Of a DNA stretch of 5,829 bases, positions 1 through 5,829 are shown one piece after another; within the stretch, counting starts at the first letter, position 1; each line of letters begins with the position of its first letter. Source of the stretch: a virus; IMG/VR virus record IMGVR_UViG_3300000297_000070, positions 1-5,829 of that record, one strand, 5' to 3'. Under the pieces are notes generated by a model, which did not search any database, was not told the DNA's origin, and saw nothing but the letters and a program-made list of their open reading frames with translations. Both the position numbers and the translations under genes were made by a program.

Positions 1-52
1 CGGGTTTGCGCTTCCGTCATGAAAGCTGTTTATATAGATGCTCGTTTTTTCT
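1..52. repeat. Terminal direct repeat, copy 1 (assembly overlap of a circular molecule)
   Basis: CGGGTTTGCGCTTCCGTCATGAAAGCTGTTTATATAGATGCTCGTTTTTTCT is identical to 5778-5829, compared base by base. Confidence 0.95.
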
Positions 53-768
53 GTGTAATTTTCGTCTGTGTATCCCGTCACCGTTGCATTACCTGTCAGG
101 TTGATTTCCACAGGATCAGATTTTAACGGCGAGGGCAAACAGGATGTGAAGTAGTCGTGGAATTTTCCAGCTTTTGCCGGTTTCATTCCGTATAGTGCTC
201 CTTCGTTCATGTTCGTTGTTTTTTCCGGGTCGTTGGCGCTATATTTGATGTCTGTCGTTCCATCTCCCGCTGGGATTCCGCCTTCGTCGGTTTTTTTATA
301 GCCTAGCATTAACGGTGCTTCAAGGTTTTCATCCCTGAACCACTCGTTATAGATCATTGCGTAGGCGCGTGCCGGTAGTGCGTTTGCGGTGATTGTTTTG
401 TCTATGTTCGTAGGCAGTCCGAAATAATCGCCGATGCTCCCGTTTTGGATTCCCTTTGCTACTCCAAATTGGCAAGTCGGCGTGCTGTATTCGGTTTTTT
501 CTGCCCAATAGTCGGTGTTATTTTCGCCGAACATATTTTCCCAGTGTTCCCACAGCAGACGGCACGGAACAAAGAAGAAATAGGTATCCATGTAGCAGTT
601 ATCCATGATAGGATAGATAGGCGTGCTCATACGGATAAGGCCGTTCAGGTGTACTTTTGCGGTATCGCCCGGCAACACTTCGTCGCAGTAGATGGGTACC
701 AGGTCGCCTTCGTTGATGGTCGTCAACAGCTGGTGACTTCTGTCAAATTTGCTTCGCGGTCGTTCCAT
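1..768 (-). CDS. VP1: Major capsid protein, N-terminal 256 codons (continues across the circular junction into 5777..4881; 554 aa in total)
   Basis: ATG at 768-766. I checked all 256 minus-strand codons down to base 1 by hand and found no stop. Translation: MERPRSKFDRSHQLLTTINEGDLVPIYCDEVLPGDTAKVHLNGLIRMSTPIYPIMDNCYMDTYFFFVPCRLLWEHWENMFGEN... This is the N-terminal signature of Microviridae F/VP1 capsid proteins (RSxFDxSH, TT, G-L-P, EVLPGDT). The ORF is missing from the track because it runs off the window edge. Confidence 0.95.
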   Translation of the reverse strand, partial: MERPRSKFDRSHQLLTTINEGDLVPIYCDEVLPGDTAKVHLNGLIRMSTPIYPIMDNCYMDTYFFFVPCRLLWEHWENMFGENNTDYWAEKTEYSTPTCQFGVAKGIQNGSIGDYFGLPTNIDKTITANALPARAYAMIYNEWFRDENLEAPLMLGYKKTDEGGIPAGDGTTDIKYSANDPEKTTNMNEGALYGMKPAKAGKFHDYFTSCLPSPLKSDPVEINLTGNATVTGYTDENYTEKTSIYINSFHDGSANP

Positions 769-793
769 TCGCGGCACTTGCGCGAAATGGTTC

Positions 794-1219
794 TCACTGT
801 TTCTGTTCGTTGTCCTTCACCTCCTCCTTTTTTTCTTCCTCTTTTGGCTTCGGCTGTTCGGTCTGCTGCATCTGTTTCAGCTGTTCCATTGTTTCGGCTG
901 CAGCCTCTACCTTTTCGTGCATCGTCATGATGTCCTTCGGCAGATTTTCGAAGTCAGTTCCTTCGGTGTACATCATGCTCTTTGCCTTGATACTGGTGTC
1001 TCCCGCTTCCAGCCGTGCGATTGCGCTTGCAAGGTCGTAGCCTTCGCCCGCTCGCTGGATTTTCTCGTATGTGTTTTCGTTCGGCTGTTTGATGTAGTCG
1101 GTAGTGCCGTTCGGTCGCTTGACTGCTTTCCACGTTGGTGCGGTCTTGCTACCCGGATTGTTTATCACTCGTTCTGTTGGTAGTCCGTAGTACCTTACCA
1201 GTGCATTAGGATTTAACAT
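794..1219 (-). CDS. 141-aa protein immediately upstream of the capsid gene; probable internal scaffolding protein (VP3-like), with a Glu/Lys-rich C-terminal tail
   Basis: ATG at 1219 is preceded by GAAGGAGACGACCA (strong SD, 7-nt spacing). TGA at 796-794. It overlaps the upstream gene by 14 nt. Every ATG on this strand inside it is in frame. Its size, position next to VP1 and acidic tail (EQPKPKEEEKKEEVKDNEQKQ) fit a microvirus scaffold. I cannot confirm homology by eye. Confidence 0.7.
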   Translation of the reverse strand: MLNPNALVRYYGLPTERVINNPGSKTAPTWKAVKRPNGTTDYIKQPNENTYEKIQRAGEGYDLASAIARLEAGDTSIKAKSMMYTEGTDFENLPKDIMTMHEKVEAAAETMEQLKQMQQTEQPKPKEEEKKEEVKDNEQKQ

Positions 1220-1460
1220 TGGTCGTCTCCTTCAGGTCGATGAGTCGTGCGATGTGTTCAGGCATTGCCTCGCTCATGTAGCCGTTTTCGGTGTCGAATT
1301 CGCCCAGTTCTACGAGTGAAATATCTTCGATTTCACTCGGTTTGCTTTCGTTGGCCTTCCATCGTGCCGTTCGCACTGCCTGTGCTCTGTTGTTCTGCAG
1401 AAACGGCTGTGAGTAGCCGTTGGTCAATGCATCGTGGAATGAATAGAATTTCAGTTTCAT
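1206..1460 (-). CDS. 84-aa conserved small microvirus non-structural protein (VP5-like family)
   Basis: ATG at 1460 is preceded by AAAGGAGAAAAAC. TAA at 1208-1206. The pattern MKLKFYSFHDALTNGYSQPF...A.R...... LVELGEFDTENG matches, from memory, the F-S-x-D...PF...LxELGxFDxxxG pattern of small proteins annotated as non-structural in gokushovirus-like genomes. Confidence 0.75.
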   Translation of the reverse strand: MKLKFYSFHDALTNGYSQPFLQNNRAQAVRTARWKANESKPSEIEDISLVELGEFDTENGYMSEAMPEHIARLIDLKETTNVKS

Positions 1461-1471
1461 GTTTTTCTCCT

Positions 1472-1588
1472 TTACTCTTTGTCTTTGCTTGCATCCTTCA
1501 GCGCGTGGTAGATTTCGTCGAGCTTTTCAAGGATATTCATCATTAGCGCGATTGCTTCCTTGACGTCCTTGACCTTGATCAGTGCCAT
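1472..1588 (-). CDS. 38-aa hypothetical protein (MALIKVKDVKEAIALMMNILEKLDEIYHALKDASKDKE), predicted helical
   Basis: Not in the ORF track because it is too short. ATG at 1588 is preceded by AAAGGAGATGAATTA (SD, 8-nt spacing). Its TAA at 1474-1472 sits inside the SD region of the next gene. It fills an otherwise empty gap in a tightly packed genome. Confidence 0.5.
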   Translation of the reverse strand: MALIKVKDVKEAIALMMNILEKLDEIYHALKDASKDKE

Positions 1589-1619
1589 TAATTCATCTCC
1601 TTTCTTTGGTTTGTGTCGC

Positions 1620-1736
1620 TTACAGCCGGATACCGCCCCGCGATACCTTCGGTCGTACGTTGATGTTTTTTACCCGCTTTGCAGTCTGGGTAAAGCGCTT
1701 CTGGTCGCCTCGACCCGCTCCGCTTCTGTGTGCCAT
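1620..1736 (-). CDS. 38-aa highly basic DNA-binding/packaging protein (phiX174 J / gokushovirus VP8-like)
   Basis: Not in the ORF track. ATG at 1736 is preceded by AAAGGAGTAAACAA. TAA at 1622-1620. Sequence: MAHRSGAGRGDQKRFTQTAKRVKNINVRPKVSRGGIRL. It has 11 Arg/Lys and 1 acidic residue in 38 aa, and the C-terminal RGGxRL-type ending is typical of small microvirus DNA-condensing proteins. Confidence 0.75.
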   Translation of the reverse strand: MAHRSGAGRGDQKRFTQTAKRVKNINVRPKVSRGGIRL

Positions 1737-1882
1737 TTGTTTACTCCTTTATGTGTTTTTTCTGTTTCGATCATCATTTGTTTTTTTGGTCTGGTCTCGT
1801 ACATTCCATGATTTCATTGTTGATTTTCCTTTCCAGATTATGGCGTCATTTGATTACCGCTTGATTCTGATACGTTCCATTG

Positions 1883-2275
1883 TTACATCCCCTTTCTGTA
1901 TTTTTTCCCGGTTCGCACATCAAAGTGCACCCAAGTGTTGTATACGATAATGCCGCATTCATCCGGGACGATATCATTCAGCTTGTTGGCAAGTTCTTTT
2001 GCGCTCATGCCATCGACTCGGATATCTGCTGCCATACCGCGCATGTGGTAGCTGTATTTTGCTCCGTTGCATTTTTTGTTCCACTCTGGTGTTCTGTATC
2101 CGCTGGTGATAATGACTGGTTTCCCTATTTTATGTCGGAGGATGTCCAGAACGTTATACAAGTAGTCATCTATGAATACTATCGGACTACCGTCTTTACA
2201 TGCAAATTCTTTTACTTTGAAGTGTCTTGCAAGTTGTACATTTCCGTCTGTGTTCATGATATAACTTTTAAGCAT
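1883..2275 (-). CDS. Zinc D-Ala-D-Ala carboxypeptidase-fold peptidoglycan peptidase (Peptidase M15A / M15_3-like), putative lysin
   Basis: Motifs read directly from the translation: FKVKEFACKDGS, then SGYRTPEWN...SYHMRGMAADI (H-x6-D zinc ligands), then WVHFDV (third His). This is the M15A/VanY-like signature. I prefer the ATG at 2275, with GAGGAG 11 nt upstream. The track's start at 2284 is a TTG that overlaps the stop of the preceding ORF (TTGA). TAA at 1885-1883. There is no N-terminal signal peptide or TM segment. Confidence 0.9.
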   Translation of the reverse strand: MLKSYIMNTDGNVQLARHFKVKEFACKDGSPIVFIDDYLYNVLDILRHKIGKPVIITSGYRTPEWNKKCNGAKYSYHMRGMAADIRVDGMSAKELANKLNDIVPDECGIIVYNTWVHFDVRTGKKYRKGM

Positions 2276-2280
2276 TTTTG

Positions 2281-2442
2281 TCAATTCTCCTCTATTTTAT
2301 TTATCTTCCATTGGCTTATAATGTCATTCTTGGTCCAGATAAGACACTTTGCAAGTTTTTTGCTTTCTGCTAGTGTGTGACGGATTTCCTTTTTGCCTGT
2401 TTTTTTGTTTGTCATTTCGATTTTGTAACTTTTTAGTGTCAT
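2281..2442 (-). CDS. 53-aa lysine-rich hypothetical protein (MTLKSYKIEMTNKKTGKKEIRHTLAESKKLAKCLIWTKNDIISQWKINKIEEN)
   Basis: Not in the track. ATG at 2442 is preceded by GCGAGGTGCTCAGA (SD GAGGTG, 7-nt spacing). Its TGA at 2283-2281 lies 5 nt upstream of the peptidase ATG. Its start overlaps the stop of the 60-aa ORF as ATGA. A strong promoter-like element sits about 30 nt upstream. Confidence 0.55.
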   Translation of the reverse strand: MTLKSYKIEMTNKKTGKKEIRHTLAESKKLAKCLIWTKNDIISQWKINKIEEN

Positions 2443-2621
2443 TCTGAGCACCTCGCTTTCTTTTCTGATTCTATTATATCACATGTCAATATGCTTTTCC
2501 ATGATTTTGCCGTTTTGTAATAAAATTGTAACCTTCTCTTGTAACCCGGTTTTGCTCCTTTGTTTTGAAAGCGCTTTAGCGCCTTGCCGTATGGAGCGCA
2601 GCGGAATACGGCTAAATCCAT
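2439..2621 (-). CDS. 60-aa basic hypothetical ORF between rep and the peptidase cassette (weakly supported)
   Basis: ATG at 2621, and its stop overlaps the next ORF's start as ATGA (2442-2439). Against it: AAGGA abuts the ATG, so SD spacing is poor, and the predicted promoter for the downstream genes lies inside it. It may be non-coding leader or regulatory DNA. Confidence 0.3.
   Translation of the reverse strand: MDLAVFRCAPYGKALKRFQNKGAKPGYKRRLQFYYKTAKSWKSILTCDIIESEKKARCSE
2449..2463 (-). repeat. 15-nt leader repeat, copy 1 (minus sense AAAGAAAGCGAGGTG)
   Basis: Plus-strand CACCTCGCTTTCTTT is identical to 3678-3692. This copy supplies the SD of the 53-aa ORF, downstream of the TATAAT box. 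Confidence 0.8.
2473..2501 (-). promoter_or_regulatory. Sigma70/SigA-type promoter with extended -10, driving the 53-aa ORF and the peptidase
   Basis: The minus strand reads TGGAAA-(17 nt)-TATAAT, and the spacer ends in TGa, giving TGaTATAAT (extended -10). The -10 maps to + 2478-2473 and the -35 to + 2501-2496. The SD and ATG of the 53-aa ORF follow about 25-30 nt downstream. Confidence 0.45.
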
Positions 2622-2642
2622 TCCTTTTTAGCGCTGTGCGCG

Positions 2643-3647
2643 TCATGCTTTTGGTTCACGCCACTTTTGCCTTAGCTTGTCCTTTTCTTTCTGAATGTTG
2701 AGATAGGTTTCATAATCTACGTTTGTGCTCTGTTCGAGATTGACTAAACTTTGTATTGCGTTGCGTCTGCGTCTGGCTCTAACCTCTCTCAGCTCGTCAG
2801 AATGTGCCTTAAAATAGCTTTCTGTGTCTTGGCTGGTATCCTTATCTAGAATCTTATCAAAATAGCGTGGAGGCCTTTTCTCGCGTCCTCCCGCGCATAT
2901 GATGCTATCTGTTTTCATGATTTCATCTTTGTGTTCTTTTAGATACTTTTCGCCGATACCTTTTGACATGATTCGGAACTCTGGCTCTCTTCCTTCCATC
3001 CAGTATTTTGCCGTTTGTTCTGCTCCTATGGCTTTTTTGTTGACGTACTGCGCTACGTATGCAAAACTTCCCGGTTGTGCTGGTGAAAAGTCGATCATGC
3101 CCTTTCCCCAGATTTTTTCTAGCCACTCGCTTTTAAAGTAGCTGTTGCCCTTTTGGTTTTTATACCATTGTGCGTCCGGTGGCTTCAGTCCAAATACTAT
3201 TGCATGGTAGTGCGGTCGTTTTGTTCTGTCACCATATTCGGCTGCTAGGAAATATTTTATTGGCTTCTTGTATGCTTTCCGTAGCCGTTTTAAAAATAGC
3301 TGCACGTCTCGTTTGCTCACTGTTTGGCTTTGAATGCTTCTGTATCCTTTAATGATCTCGCCGTATGGGATGTGCTCATCGTCATATGTCAGCGTTAGAA
3401 AAATTATATCGTCCCATTCTTTTGCTTCTAGCTCTATTCTGGTTGCCCATTGGTCAGCCATCTGTTTGCGGCAGTACTCGCATTTACCGCATGGTAATAA
3501 TGCGAATTTTCCTTTTTTGATTCCGTCCATGATGTCCGTTTGTAGTCCTTGCTTTGATAGGTTCTCCAGACTTCCCCATAGCTGTGGTTTTTTCGTGTCC
3601 ATCTGAAATACTAATGGTTTTGTACATGGCATTTTTGTTACCGGCAC
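2643..3647 (-). CDS. VP4: Rolling-circle replication initiator, HUH-Y2 endonuclease (phiX174 A / gokushovirus VP4)
   Basis: Motif 1 is FLTLTY. Motif 2 is RPHYHAIVFG (HUH). Motif 3 is YVAQYVNKK, nearly identical to the phiX174 A active-site YVAKYVNK as I recall it. A CGKCEYC cluster lies upstream. TGA at 2645-2643. The track's start at 3647 is GTG, with AAGGAAG 5 nt upstream. An alternative ATG at 3632 gives MPCTKPL... but has no SD. Confidence 0.95.
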   Translation of the reverse strand: MPVTKMPCTKPLVFQMDTKKPQLWGSLENLSKQGLQTDIMDGIKKGKFALLPCGKCEYCRKQMADQWATRIELEAKEWDDIIFLTLTYDDEHIPYGEIIKGYRSIQSQTVSKRDVQLFLKRLRKAYKKPIKYFLAAEYGDRTKRPHYHAIVFGLKPPDAQWYKNQKGNSYFKSEWLEKIWGKGMIDFSPAQPGSFAYVAQYVNKKAIGAEQTAKYWMEGREPEFRIMSKGIGEKYLKEHKDEIMKTDSIICAGGREKRPPRYFDKILDKDTSQDTESYFKAHSDELREVRARRRRNAIQSLVNLEQSTNVDYETYLNIQKEKDKLRQKWREPKA

Positions 3648-3674
3648 AAGCTTCCTTGTCTATCTTGTGCCGGT
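3640..3674 (-). promoter_or_regulatory. 11-bp perfect hairpin enclosing the rep SD (in the loop) and the GTG start (in the 3' arm)
   Basis: The minus strand reads ACCGGCACAAG-ATAGACAAGGAAG-CTTGTGCCGGT. The arms are + 3640-3650 and 3664-3674, with a 13-nt loop. I checked the arms base by base. Confidence 0.6.
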
Positions 3675-3677
3675 TGA

Positions 3678-3692
3678 CACCTCGCTTTCTTT
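3678..3692 (-). repeat. 15-nt leader repeat, copy 2 (minus sense AAAGAAAGCGAGGTG), just upstream of the rep hairpin
   Basis: Identical to 2449-2463. On the coding strand it is preceded by the AT-rich stretch GTTAATATATA (possible -10). Confidence 0.8.
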
Positions 3693-3727
3693 ATATATTA
3701 ACTTGTTGTAGTCGTAGTAGTAGTAGC

Positions 3728-3893
3728 GTTGAAAGTGTTGAAAACTCGTTTTTTTAACGTTACTATGTTTATTTATTGTCTTTTTGCTTGTTGAAAACTT
3801 TGTTGAAAACTTGTTGAATTGTTGAATGTTCGTCATTTTGACGAATTTCTTTGTGCAACTTGTTGTTGAAAACCTGTTGAAAGTGTTGAAAAC
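3728..3893. repeat. Iteron-like array: nine GTTGAA-core repeats (coding sense TTCAAC, mostly GTTTTCAAC) in three clusters
   Basis: GTTGAA starts at 3728, 3737, 3790, 3802, 3813, 3821, 3865, 3876 and 3885. Spacing within clusters is 8-12 nt. A perfect 20-bp direct repeat GTTGAAAGTGTTGAAAACTC occurs at 3728-3747 and 3876-3895. AACTTGTTG occurs at 3700, 3808 and 3857. Scanning by eye, I found no GTTGAA or TTCAAC elsewhere in the window. Confidence 0.85.
3829..3845. other. Small hairpin TTCGTCA-TTT-TGACGAA between iteron clusters
   Basis: 7-bp perfect inverted repeat with a 3-nt loop. A stem this short is expected by chance several times per genome, so only its position is suggestive. Confidence 0.35.
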
Positions 3894-3934
3894 TCAAGTT
3901 TTCCACATTCTCTATTTTTTGGATTATTGTTGCT

Positions 3935-3961
3935 AAAAAGGGGGATGTTTTGCCACCCCCC
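3935..3961 (-). terminator. Rho-independent terminator after the pilot gene (end of the main transcription unit)
   Basis: The minus strand reads GGGGGGTG-GCAAAA-CATCCCCC followed by TTTTT. In RNA this is an 8-bp stem with one G.U pair. It begins 8 nt after the TAA at 3972-3970. Confidence 0.75.
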
Positions 3962-3969
3962 TTCCTTTC

Positions 3970-4842
3970 TTAGTCTCCTGTGTATGCTTGTCCGGATTTG
4001 TACCCATCAATTAGTTTGCGTCTTCTTGCTGCTTTGTTGATGGTATCTTCGGCTACTTTGTCAACACCTTCTTTGGCTGCTTTACCAGCCTTTTTTACTG
4101 CTTCTTTGGCTTTTTCTCCCGCTTTTGTAAGGCCTGTACCTAACTTGTTGGCTGTATAGGCGTAATCGCTTGCTTGTTTTGCGCTCGAGGTTGCCAGCTC
4201 GCTCGCTGCCTGTTCCCAGCTTTTCGCACTCTTAAGTTGTTTTGCGCTGGTGGCCTGTTTTGCCAGCTGTAAGTATTTGTCTGCCAGCTCTGCCGTGTTG
4301 TTGCCGTATTCGTACATTGCGGATACGCTTGCAGCCTGTGCGCTCTGCTGGTTATAGTGCTGACTTCCAATGCTTGCAGATGATCCTGATGGTGTGCTTG
4401 TTGCTCCGTTGGTCGCTGCTAGAATAGGATTGATGCCCGCCGCTATCATGTCCTTTACGGTGTCTTGATAGGCTGTCCCGCGCATTTCCTTCTGAAACGC
4501 TCGTTCTGCTGCTGCTTCTGCGCTATTGTACTTCTTGGCGCTTGCTTGGCTTCCAGCGTTTGCGAGGTTGCTAAGTAGTCCGCTCATCATTTGCAGTGCG
4601 TTCGCGGTGTTTACGCTGCTCTGGTTGCCGAATGTGGCAATACCTGTCGGTGTGCTGATTTGTGTCGCACCGATTTGCTGTGGTGCTGTTACACTGCCGG
4701 TCGTGCTCTCGCTGCCGGTTGTGCTCTCGCTGCCTGATGCTTGGTTGTTCTTGGCGCTGCTCTGGTTGCTGTTCGTTATGATGCCTGTTAACATGCTTAG
4801 CCCTTGCATGAGAGATGGCAAAAGCTTTAATAACGTCTCCAT
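3970..4842 (-). CDS. VP2: DNA pilot / minor capsid protein (phiX174 H-like, gokushovirus VP2)
   Basis: 290 aa. The block AERAFQKEMRGTAYQDTVKDMIAAGINPILA matches the conserved (R/N)xFQxxMxxTAYQxxVxDMxxAGLNPxLA core of microvirus pilot proteins, from memory. The N-terminus is hydrophobic, the linker is rich in Ser/Thr/Gly/Gln, and the C-terminal region is Lys/Ala-rich and probably coiled. Confidence 0.9.
   Translation of the reverse strand: METLLKLLPSLMQGLSMLTGIITNSNQSSAKNNQASGSESTTGSESTTGSVTAPQQIGATQISTPTGIATFGNQSSVNTANALQMMSGLLSNLANAGSQASAKKYNSAEAAAERAFQKEMRGTAYQDTVKDMIAAGINPILAATNGATSTPSGSSASIGSQHYNQQSAQAASVSAMYEYGNNTAELADKYLQLAKQATSAKQLKSAKSWEQAASELATSSAKQASDYAYTANKLGTGLTKAGEKAKEAVKKAGKAAKEGVDKVAEDTINKAARRRKLIDGYKSGQAYTGD
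4694..4734 (-). repeat. In-frame 18-bp tandem duplication inside the pilot gene (encodes GSESTT GSESTT GS)
   Basis: The units are 4694-4711 and 4712-4729 (CTGCCGGT[C/T]GTGCTCTCG) and differ at one base. A partial third unit covers 4730-4734. Confidence 0.85.
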
Positions 4843-4844
4843 TC

Positions 4845-4870
4845 AAAAATAGCCCCGCTTTTGCGGGGCT
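4845..4870 (-). terminator. Rho-independent terminator/attenuator between the capsid and pilot genes
   Basis: The minus strand reads AGCCCCGC-AAAA-GCGGGGCT followed by ATTTTT. This is an 8-bp GC-rich perfect stem. The pilot gene's ATG (4842) starts 2 nt after the T-run. Confidence 0.7.
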
Positions 4871-4878
4871 TCCTCCTT
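4871..4878 (-). promoter_or_regulatory. Strong Shine-Dalgarno AAGGAGGA, separated from the pilot-gene ATG by the terminator hairpin
   Basis: The coding strand reads TAA-AAAAGGAGGA-[20-nt hairpin]-ATTTTTGA-ATG. The linear spacing is 28 nt, or 8 nt if the hairpin is folded out. No start codon lies 5-10 nt downstream of the SD in linear sequence. Confidence 0.5.
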
Positions 4879-4880
4879 TT

Positions 4881-5829
4881 TTAGATTCTTTCGATGCCGG
4901 GAATGCTGTAAATAGGCATTTCACGGTACCATTCTTCGGTGAAGTAGAAGTCACACAAGAACTGGTGACTTTTTGCGCTCGTCACTGCAATCGTTCGGTC
5001 AATGTTCTGTGTTCCCTCTTGGATCCACTCCGCAGAGAGATGCGGAAGCGCGTCATAATCGTCTGCATAGTGCCATGCGTCTAAACTCGTTTGGTAGTTA
5101 GAACGCATTTCACCGGTTACGTAAGAAGGCTTGTAGCGGTAATCCGCCCATGCTTCTTGATATCCGAAGATTTCGTTATCTTCGGCCGTGCCCTGTGCAT
5201 AGATTTCACGGTTATACACTGGCTGTTCGCCCAGTGCTGCAAGTCTCGGGTCGTAGTAGGTAAACCGTCCGCCACGTGTCCACTTGGTCGCAAGTCCTTG
5301 CTGGTAACTGTGCTCTACTCGTACCACTGCCAGACCGATGATGTAGCCATACTCAGTTGCTGCATAGTCTACCATTTCCTTGCTGCATGTGGTCAGGCTG
5401 TATGCTGCCGTATTGCCCAGTGCCTGCCCGGTTGTCTTGTCCGTTTGGCTCGTCTGCACGACCTGATTGACATTGATCGCGATGCGCTGTCCGCCGATGT
5501 ACTCAGGAATCTGTAGCCGGCTGTCCGGGCTTGTTACACCCCACGTACCAGACAGGAACTCACGGTATCGCGTGCCGTTGCGTGCATCTGCTTCAAAGAT
5601 GTGCTGCAAGGCAATTGCCATGCGCAAGTCTTGAATACTGATTGCGCTTACGCTGCTTAGGTCTGCACCAAGGTATGCTACTTTGTGGTCTGAGCCACTT
5701 CCGTCTCCAATGTTTAAGTATGTTGCACCGGTACCTCCGTCTTGTCCGATTGCATACAGTTTATTTCTGGTGTTGCCCGGGTTTGCGCTTCCGTCATGAA
5801 AGCTGTTTATATAGATGCTCGTTTTTTCT
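4881..5829 (-). CDS. VP1: Major capsid protein, C-terminal part (5777..4881 is unique sequence; 5778-5829 repeats 1-52)
   Basis: The minus frame is open from the window edge to the TAA at 4883-4881. The track's ORF (4881..5627) begins at an internal TTG, and I checked codons 5628-5777 by hand and found no stops. The sequence contains ...RLQIPEYIGGQRIAINVNQV... and ...YQEAWADYRYKPSYVTGEMRS..., typical of the C-terminal half of F/VP1. It joins in frame to 768..1. Confidence 0.95.
   Translation of the reverse strand, partial: EKTSIYINSFHDGSANPGNTRNKLYAIGQDGGTGATYLNIGDGSGSDHKVAYLGADLSSVSAISIQDLRMAIALQHIFEADARNGTRYREFLSGTWGVTSPDSRLQIPEYIGGQRIAINVNQVVQTSQTDKTTGQALGNTAAYSLTTCSKEMVDYAATEYGYIIGLAVVRVEHSYQQGLATKWTRGGRFTYYDPRLAALGEQPVYNREIYAQGTAEDNEIFGYQEAWADYRYKPSYVTGEMRSNYQTSLDAWHYADDYDALPHLSAEWIQEGTQNIDRTIAVTSAKSHQFLCDFYFTEEWYREMPIYSIPGIERI
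5778..5829. repeat. Terminal direct repeat, copy 2 (duplicate of 1-52)
   Basis: Identical 52-mer at the other end of the window. It lies inside the capsid reading frame. Confidence 0.95.

Follow-up and report, generated by a model that had tools for sequence, protein, structure and literature searches.

What does an array of short direct repeats do beside the replication gene of a single-stranded DNA (ssDNA) phage, and which protein recognises it? The question is raised by a 5,829-nucleotide stretch of virus DNA (IMG/VR record IMGVR_UViG_3300000297_000070, positions 1 to 5,829; hereafter the window), in which such repeats, or iterons, occupy the intergenic region between the gene for the pilot protein VP2 and that for the replication protein Rep. 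The window comprises a circular genome of 5,777 nt plus a terminal redundancy of 52 nt, and the GenBank records closest to it, at about 88% identity, come from human-gut gokushoviruses. To our knowledge, gokushovirus origins have not been mapped so far. The accepted view of microviruses is that they replicate with their own HUH Rep and host elongation factors, not with a host initiator. An earlier note on this DNA had taken the array for a multimeric protein-binding platform with an origin-like layout, and had named Rep loading, a complementary-strand origin and an operator as its possible functions. Here we describe a conserved non-coding module that contains the array, is independent of Rep lineage and of orientation, and agrees in anatomy with the basal unwinding system (BUS) of bacterial replication origins. 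On balance, we lean towards the array being the DnaA-assembly part of an oriC-like module that would act on the replicative form and depend on the DnaA of the host.

A conserved module of clustered iterons

The repeat array was confirmed by an exact count on both strands. GTTGAA occurs nine times, always on the plus strand (at 3728, 3737, 3790, 3802, 3813, 3821, 3865, 3876 and 3885), and outside the array neither the hexamer nor its complement is found in the window, as the earlier note had observed by eye. The enrichment check proposed there was also run: shuffles of the whole window contained 3.09 ± 1.65 copies of GTTGAA and reached nine in 1 of 200 cases, and under random placement the probability that all nine fall inside 163 nt is about 4e-12. 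Five of the copies read GTTGAAAAC, positions 3728–3747 recur perfectly over 20 bp at 3876–3895, and the GC content over 3721–3900 is 30% (54/180) compared with 46% genome-wide, all in line with the previous description. The sequence AACTTGTTG, described as recurring three times, does so within the region and has a fourth copy at 4142. Tandem Repeats Finder reported the iterons as arrays with periods of 12, 8 and 10 nt.

Comparison with relatives and a profile hidden Markov model (HMM) place the array in a non-coding module of 222 bp (3693–3914, minus strand). Its edges were set against a related genome, L009 (IMGVR_UViG_3300045988_015275), which lacks exactly 3693–3914 at the corresponding site. 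The HMM, built from 12 copies, matches the window at 3694–3913 with an E-value of 2e-51. Applied to loci gathered through Rep, through a conserved DNA pattern and through VP1, it matched 121 loci, 111 of them distinct in sequence, on gokushovirus contigs. Sensitive BLAST with the intergenic region alone returned 43 gokushovirus records at 70–80% identity, and a high-stringency search with the whole genome matched 8 records only.

On the minus strand, which is the coding strand of all genes in the window, the module starts with three clusters of repeat boxes, A, B and C, continues with a run of CTA trinucleotides and finishes with an AT-rich end. Cluster A (3864–3892, minus strand) holds three co-oriented 9-mers, TTTTCAACA, CTTTCAACA and again TTTTCAACA, with starts 11 and 9 nt apart and a conserved distance to the CTA run. 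Cluster B (3789–3828, minus strand) has four co-oriented 9-mers spaced by 12, 11 and 8 nt, and cluster C (3727–3744, minus strand) consists of the tandem 9-mers TTTTCAACA and CTTTCAACG, which abut the trinucleotide run. At the cluster C site most relatives carry TTTTCAAC-TTTTCCACA, followed by a 4-nt GC-rich spacer. The trinucleotide run (3709–3726) reads TAG TCG TAG TAG TAG TAG on the plus strand, that is, CTA repeats on the minus strand, and was reported by Tandem Repeats Finder with a period of 3 and 6.3 copies, as (GTA)6.3 at 3708–3726. The AT-rich end (3685–3711) resembles an unwinding element and contains the near-invariant block CTACAACAAGTTAATATATA (minus strand, 3711 to 3692). The stretch from 3685 is the least stable duplex of the genome at windows of 20, 40 and 100 nt, and the equivalent stretch of relatives has a median rank in the top 2.8% for duplex instability. 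At the opposite end of the module, far from the AT-rich stretch, stands a single strict DnaA box, TTTTCCACA (3899–3907, plus strand), which is inverted with respect to all other boxes; it is kept in 43 of 44 copies from the clade of the window and in 7 of 58 copies from a distant clade. A small, partly conserved hairpin with an 8-bp stem, already seen between the clusters in the earlier note, maps to 3828–3846 in the variable spacer between clusters A and B.

Conservation was calculated from 37 non-redundant copies, no two of which are 93% or more identical. The iterons are conserved at 90–99% and the spacers at 40–60%; the (CTA)3-5 run reaches about 99% and the block CTACAACAAGTTAATATATA at least 99%. 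Read on the TTCAAC strand, the consensus has two groups of four iterons, each followed by a variable stretch of about 45 nt (AT-rich in the second case), and then a group of two iterons, after which come a 4-nt GC-rich spacer and CTACTACTAC-NN-CTACAACAAGTTATATA. The iterons start 178/169/160/149, 105/97/86/74 and 20/12 nt from the first CTA, and these distances are nearly invariant across copies, which are 178–226 nt long in total. There are nine co-oriented 9-mers in the window and ten in most relatives. Over 330 iterons the consensus is (T)TTTC[A/C]ACA, with A at position 6 in 89%, C in 11%, and G or T never. Conserved iterons, fixed distances and drifting spacers together fit a nucleoprotein complex of fixed geometry. 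Thus, the idea of a multimeric protein-binding platform with an origin-like layout is supported by the contrast between iterons and spacers and by the near-invariant number and distances of the repeats.

The spacer between clusters B and C (about 3750–3775 in the window) shows a feature of its own: two CG dinucleotides about 7 nt apart, 86–98% conserved, with the consensus aCGttntaaCGtTaaAaatT. The pair often lies in a small inverted repeat, for example GCGTATCAACGC in L057, and might serve to bind an accessory protein, for instance one that bends DNA.

Several other identities of the region were considered and dropped. Coding potential was rejected, as open frames vary from copy to copy, length differences are not multiples of three and the apparent peptides are translated iterons. 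The best match to a known RNA family in Rfam, U4, scored 21.8 bits, below the gathering score of 46, and a promoter array was rejected since the region contains one weak site, not above shuffles. Spo0A boxes (TGTCGAA) require a G that is never G in the 330 iterons, and CodY and CcpA (cre) sites, compared by eye, differ by several mismatches.

Agreement with the basal unwinding system

A BUS is defined by a DnaA box with no more than two mismatches and a second box in tandem, a spacer of 0–16 bp and at least three DnaA-trios, the spacer typically comprising the second box and a GC-rich stretch of 4–5 bp (PMC8287927, PMC8235120). Where the box reads TGTGGATAA, that strand carries the trios on its 5′ tail (PMC8287927), and box orientation is essential. 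The strand complementary to the trios is CTACTATTACTTCTACTA in B. subtilis (PMC10201434), and the trio of C. difficile is CACCTACTACTATTACTACTATGA (PMC7561715). The DnaA boxes of Thermoanaerobacter tengcongensis, a member of the class Clostridia, have the consensus TTATCNACA, and gel-shift work on this species employed TGTTGATAA as a box (PMC1888806).

We searched for this arrangement with a stricter rule: a box with at most two mismatches, 0–16 nt, and at least three exact CTA. The pattern was found in 24 of the 37 non-redundant copies, in all of them with the correct polarity and in none in reverse. It had no match in 405 kb of these genomes outside modules, where (CTA)3 and (TAG)3 runs are also absent. 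The spacer measures 4 nt in 19 of the 24 matching copies (GCCC, GTGC, ACCC, also TACT).

The individual parts agree with the definition as follows. The first box may deviate by two mismatches from TTATCCACA or from the box of the species itself; the window has TTTTCAACA, with two mismatches, 9 nt from the first CTA, and most relatives have TTTTCCACA, with one mismatch, 4 nt from CTA. For the second box, which may carry up to four mismatches and lie up to 3 bp away, the window has the directly adjacent CTTTCAACG with four mismatches, and the tandem arrangement of relatives is nTTTTCAAC followed by TTTTCCACA. The TAG-type run at 3709–3726 on the plus strand corresponds to the trio consensus 3′-GAT-5′. 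The polarity is also as expected, the plus strand reading 5′-(TAG)n-C-GTTGAAAG-TGTTGAAAA-3′. It was judged by the 5′-tail rule and by oriC of E. coli, which has TTATCCACA, a GC-rich sequence and the unwinding element in turn on one strand, a sequence verified at 100% identity in 5,425 genomes. Beyond the trios comes the AT-rich element, the least stable duplex of the genome. The module differs in location from a chromosomal origin beside dnaA/dnaN, as it lies between VP2 and rep of a gokushovirus. Being part of a phage genome, it would work like a BUS or mimic one rather than be a chromosomal oriC.

The box TTTTCCACA fits the E. coli DnaA-box definition TTWTNCACA; it makes up 28 of the 330 iterons, and at least one strict DnaA box is present in 27 of the 37 copies. 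In the interpretation as DnaA boxes and BUS, which as a whole we somewhat favour, the iterons are putative DnaA boxes of the TTATCNACA / TTWTNCACA type.

Inheritance of the module and rival explanations

Genomes of the window's clade carry the module in the spacer from VP2 to rep, where TTCAAC is read on the coding strand. A second clade, whose Rep and VP1 are 35–40% and 40–50% identical, respectively, to those of the window, has it downstream of rep. Among 58 distinct copies of the distant clade, 54 are inverted relative to the genes and 4 have the same orientation. Whatever the orientation class, four-fold degenerate sites of the coding strand have an AT skew of +0.57 to +0.61. As the skew is identical whichever way the module points, there is no sign that the packaged strand follows the module, and a packaged strand that flips with it was rejected. 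In the window itself, a skew of about +0.57 means that the coding strand is extremely A-rich relative to T; that of phiMH2K is A-rich as well (35% A, 19% T), the opposite of the T-rich viral strand of phiX174.

Genome L009 separates the module from its Rep. Its Rep is 97% identical to that of the window, and its module is 97% identical to that of the distant-clade genome L133 and 63% identical to that of the window. The L009 module is inverted and inserted directly downstream of the rep stop codon, flanked by an ACGC/CGC duplicate, and the spacer between VP2 and rep is cleanly devoid of it (regions 470–600 and 1583–1810 of L009). Module and flanks match L133 at 92.5% over 307 nt, that is, beyond the edges of the module. 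L009 thus has the appearance of a natural recombinant between window-type VP2, Rep and VP1 and a distant-clade module; it may also be a chimera of metagenomic assembly.

The distribution of the module follows accessory genes, and not the phylogeny of VP1 or Rep. All 26 genomes of the window clade carry it, as do 1 of 19 in the clade nearest by VP1 and 17 of 27 in a more distant clade. A peptidase M15 gene accompanies it in 22 of 29 carriers compared with 1 of 28 non-carriers, and a 38-amino-acid open reading frame (ORF; 1588 to 1472 in the window, MALIKVKDVKEAIALMMNILEKLDEIYHALKDASKDKE) in 24 of 29 distant carriers compared with none of the 28 genomes lacking the module. We found no phage protein conserved to a degree comparable with the module, and no analogous module in the relatives that lack it. 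Rep-independent iterons, the swap in L009, the want of an equally conserved phage protein and the link to accessory genes together fit a host partner better than a phage partner, and the distribution fits adaptation to a host group. Independence of orientation and position, with unchanged skew, fits an element that acts on double-stranded DNA. As a side observation, the part of the window that contains peptidase M15 and its upstream region (1861–2643) shares 80–85% nucleotide identity with gokushoviruses whose Rep is about 36% identical (L009, L062, L133), and this block looks as if it had been exchanged horizontally.

Searches for the module beyond these viruses returned nothing in 72,556 plasmids and, in 185,579 bacterial genomes (one per species), a single match, which is a binned microvirus contig. 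This contig (L181, CAVKUS010000079.1; 5,739 nt, Rep 93% identical, module present) comes from the bin 'Bacteroides sp. CAG:545'. Because the phage genes carry Shine-Dalgarno sequences, which precede most genes of the window, the bin is probably an artefact and was not taken as evidence of the host. Shine-Dalgarno sequences and the clostridial type of box and trio would rather suggest Firmicutes hosts, an assignment by inference only. Three other pattern matches in bacterial genomes were rejected as coding Thr/Ser-rich repeats. Arrays of (G)TTTTCAACA in the same orientation, with 9–13-nt spacing, also occur in non-coding DNA of unrelated viral contigs of 16–125 kb (L202, L248, L193, L241, L235, L197, L208). 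That of L235 lies between integrase and XRE-type repressor genes, ends in tandem boxes and an AT-rich run and could be an attachment site. BLAST of these large contigs gave weak matches to Firmicutes phages only. The arrays might reflect a host factor shared by many phages; since the search pattern itself selected for them, we do not count them as evidence.

Which partner other than host DnaA could account for the module? If it were Rep (VP4), as the earlier note had proposed, the iterons would be its bind locus in a Rep-dependent double-strand origin, and the nick would fall in the conserved end, at TACTACG/AC, as in pMV158, or at CAACAAG/TTATATA, the latter resembling CAACTTG/ATATTAATA of phiX174. 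A near-invariant 17-mer beside the CTA run does suggest the site of a sequence-specific enzyme, the AT-rich/trio end faces rep in both arrangements, and every genome without the module has a Rep no more than 48% identical to that of any carrier. The window also holds TACTACGAC, which is identical to the 9-mer nicked by pMV158 RepB, and the origin of pMV158 likewise has direct repeats some way from its nick (PMC1851628). However, no dinucleotide of the block is less conserved than the G and A at this supposed nick (GA, GG, GT, TC, TA, TT), and the TACTACG/AC-type motif is neither in a hairpin loop nor surrounded by an inverted repeat. Moreover, Rep, whose sole Pfam match is PF23343 REP_ORF2-G2P and which has the two-tyrosine motif YVAQY, is not of the pMV158 RepB family. 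The co-variation of iterons with Rep that the earlier note had suggested looking for turned out negative, as the same iterons stand with Reps 35–40% identical, and in L009 a window-type Rep goes with a foreign, inverted and relocated module. With both orientations at an identical skew of about +0.57, a nick inside the module would require the packaged strand to flip. A 14-mer of the module is not above chance in relatives lacking the module or in reference gokushoviruses, and it is a hairpin next to rep (3640–3674), not the module, that tracks Rep lineage. Rep as the binding partner is therefore not supported, and we consider a Rep-dependent origin here unlikely.

An operator or centromere-like array for a phage or host regulator of the ribbon-helix-helix, ParR or omega type, controlling the rep promoter in the clade of the window or, in the other clade, the late promoter downstream of rep, would suit the repeats as such, since short direct repeats at 8–12-bp spacing are typical of these regulators. 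The module lies upstream of rep in the window and, in the other clade, directly upstream of a promoter region of the type found at 2452–2642; the 38-amino-acid ORF, with its presence in distant carriers and absence from genomes lacking the module, could encode the regulator. Nevertheless, such an array leaves the (CTA)n run, the GC spacer, the AT-rich end and the fixed polarity unexplained, the module has opposite orientations relative to the putative target genes, and the region shows no promoter enrichment. The 38-amino-acid ORF is acidic to neutral, is absent from 5 of 29 carriers and co-occurs with peptidase M15, so that its correlation with the module may simply reflect shared host range; we regard an operator as improbable. 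The complementary-strand origin on packaged ssDNA that the earlier note had listed, be it like the G4/phiX primosome sites, plasmid single-strand origins or the ABC-primosome hairpin with its DnaA box, would answer the need of ssDNA phages for a priming signal, and in the window clade the inverted box TGTGGAAAA can pair with the adjacent iteron in 13 of 16 pairs. Yet the ssDNA fold of the module is ordinary (z = -1.65, with 10 of 200 shuffles as good), this hairpin is missing from most copies (the inverted box being present in 7 of 58 in the distant clade), and the module can point either way with respect to the coding strand, presumably the packaged one, which makes a minus-strand origin very improbable. 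We give just as little credit to a selfish mobile element, MITE-like or a hitch-hiking mini-replicon without a role for the phage. It would explain a discrete cassette at two sites and in two orientations, and the 3–4-nt duplicate (ACGC or CGC) that flanks the L009 insertion. It does not agree with the lack of terminal inverted repeats, the variable ends, the single copy per genome and the fixation in 26 of 26 window-clade genomes, and L009 is explained by recombination that included the flanks.

The assignment to host DnaA, which we prefer, has its own difficulties. We know of no rolling-circle ssDNA phage that needs DnaA. The module is absent from 18 of 19 genomes of one related clade and from 10 of 27 of another, and Chp2, phiMH2K and SpV4 have neither a box cluster nor a trio run. 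Missing from relatives and reference gokushoviruses, the module would be an accessory solution and not a family-wide requirement. In the window the trio-proximal box CTTTCAACG is weak, and in its clade the GC spacer is absent, the second box abutting the trios. The AT-rich flank ranks only in the top 10–22% for instability in some relatives. The A at position 6 departs from TTWTNCACA, the rule for high-affinity boxes in E. coli, and its strictness could point to a protein other than DnaA. The 17-nt CTACAACAAGTTATATA is conserved beyond what an AT-rich unwinding element needs, which hints at a further sequence-specific factor, possibly Rep. CTACAACAAGTTATATA could be a Rep site inside a region opened by DnaA, a combined model that would revive the problem of orientation. 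As to position 6, A is also found there in TTATCAACA, which is the most frequent of the variant boxes that T5-like phages have in their DnaA-box cluster (bioRxiv 10.1101/866236).

Proposed role and genome context

If the iterons are indeed bound by host DnaA, DnaA-ATP would fill the box array on the double-stranded replicative form and oligomerise from cluster C onto the TAG strand, which is the plus strand of the window. The DNA would then melt at roughly 3685–3726. The opened DNA could be used to load the host helicase or primosome for replication of the replicative form, and/or could give Rep or host enzymes access to ssDNA. Alternatively, the module may sense or titrate DnaA. Phage replication would thereby be tied to the DnaA status of the host. 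A bolder proposal, which we consider doubtful, is that this group of gut gokushoviruses has a working mini-oriC fired by host DnaA, with minichromosome-like replication of the replicative form or with Rep rolling circle licensed at high DnaA-ATP. On this same tentative proposal, the replication of the phage, and perhaps a plasmid-like carrier state as well, would be linked to the cell cycle of the host, and recombination would pass the module among very different microviruses along with host-range genes, peptidase M15 being one.

In our assessment, which tips modestly this way on the basis of sequence comparison, the module is an element of a known kind in a new setting, a DnaA-box/DnaA-trio unwinding module in an ssDNA microvirus. 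If true, no oriC-type element would have been described before in an ssDNA phage: in the literature library searched, we found no relevant report of iterons, DnaA boxes, DnaA or oriC for Microviridae or gokushoviruses, and the iteron sequence itself turned up in primer lists only. It would also suggest how very abundant gut phages might persist or couple their replication to growth. The combination of CAACA-type boxes and CTA trios would also provide a sequence handle for predicting hosts, probably clostridial ones. More generally, iterons near rep in a virus with an HUH Rep need not be Rep sites.

The genes of the window comprise VP1 (Phage_F; from 777 across the wrap to 4881), VP2 (pilot; 4842 to 3970), Rep/VP4 (REP_ORF2-G2P; from 3647 or 3632 to 2643), a 56-amino-acid ORF, the peptidase M15 (2284 to 1883), a J-like basic 38-amino-acid ORF, an ORF5-like protein and the scaffold protein VP3. 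The intergenic region that contains the module is bounded by a GC-rich hairpin with a T run (3938–3963, minus strand), which resembles a terminator of VP2. VP2 itself contains an 18-nt tandem repeat (4694–4734, 2.3 copies) that encodes GSESTT GSESTT.

On the other side of the module, a perfect 11-bp hairpin with the loop ATAGACAAGGAAG lies just upstream of the rep ATG at 3632 (3640–3674, minus strand; DNA fold z = -6.1). It overlaps the alternative GTG start at 3647 and a Shine-Dalgarno-like AAGGAAG. In relatives it has three stem variants with compensatory changes, and it is present in all examined genomes with a Rep at least 79% identical, L009 and L050 included, and absent in the distant clade. 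This sole strong hairpin thus tracks Rep lineage and is inherited apart from the module; it could be the nick-site hairpin of Rep or a translational operator of rep.

The intergenic region with the module is not the only sizeable non-coding stretch, as had been stated in the earlier note, because 2452–2642, just downstream of rep, is non-coding too. This second stretch (minus strand) shows 80–95% nucleotide identity with otherwise very different gokushoviruses. It includes a promoter-like TGGAAA, 17 nt and TATAAT with an extended -10 TG (2501 to 2473), as well as small GC hairpins, and in the other clade the repeat module directly adjoins the region homologous to it. Also downstream of rep, L050 (Rep 80% identical) has three tandem AAAAAAACTTGA at 1330–1400, just upstream of a strong promoter-like TTGAAA, 17 nt, TAGAAT; no repeat module was found in 4.7 kb of L050, all of its contig but 1.3 kb.

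Relation to known replication origins

Comparison with origins of other HUH-Rep replicons shows partial likeness in each case. The pMV158-family origin shares direct repeats that lie tens of bp from a TACTAC block, and both belong to rolling-circle replicons, but it has 3 repeats of 11 bp and the module 9–10 of 9 bp. The origin of phiX174 and G4 is a 30-bp site, CAACTTG/ATATTAATAAC... (CAACTTGATATTAATAAC...), inside gene A on the viral strand. It comes from the same virus family, and the module contains a CAAC...G plus AT-rich motif, CAACAAGTTAATATATA; this resemblance is limited to a few bases, and unlike the phiX174 origin the module is intergenic, has iterons and carries the motif in an orientation to the genes that differs from genome to genome. 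Origins of geminiviruses and circoviruses likewise have short direct repeats near rep in an ssDNA virus with an HUH Rep. However, their iterons are Rep-specific, co-vary with Rep and flank a nonanucleotide hairpin, whereas those of the module show no such co-variation.

Among elements that recruit host DnaA, the eight boxes in the injection-stop region of T5-like phages are similarly an ordered set of host boxes on a mobile element. The origins of P1, F and pSC101 carry DnaA boxes, beside which a plasmid initiator acts with its own iterons. Both groups are double-stranded DNA replicons for which no such trio/unwinding module has been described, and in contrast to P1, F and pSC101 the module has no visible second set of initiator-specific iterons. 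With the bacterial BUS the module shares tandem co-oriented 9-mers one or two mismatches from a DnaA box, at least three consensus trios, the strand polarity, a least-stable AT-rich stretch beyond the trios and further boxes upstream; the 4-bp GC-rich spacer is seen in most copies but not in the window clade. Cluster C would be the counterpart of DnaA boxes 6 and 7 of B. subtilis, or of R1 of E. coli, and with about 220 bp the module is close in size to a minimal oriC. It differs from the bacterial system in residing in a 5.8-kb ssDNA phage genome and not beside dnaA/dnaN, in its boxes, which are overwhelmingly of the CAACA variant, all ten co-oriented and arranged in three rigidly spaced clusters, and in the near-invariant 17-mer CTACAACAAGTTATATA after the trios. 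Arrangements homologous to the BUS have been described in C. difficile, H. pylori and others.

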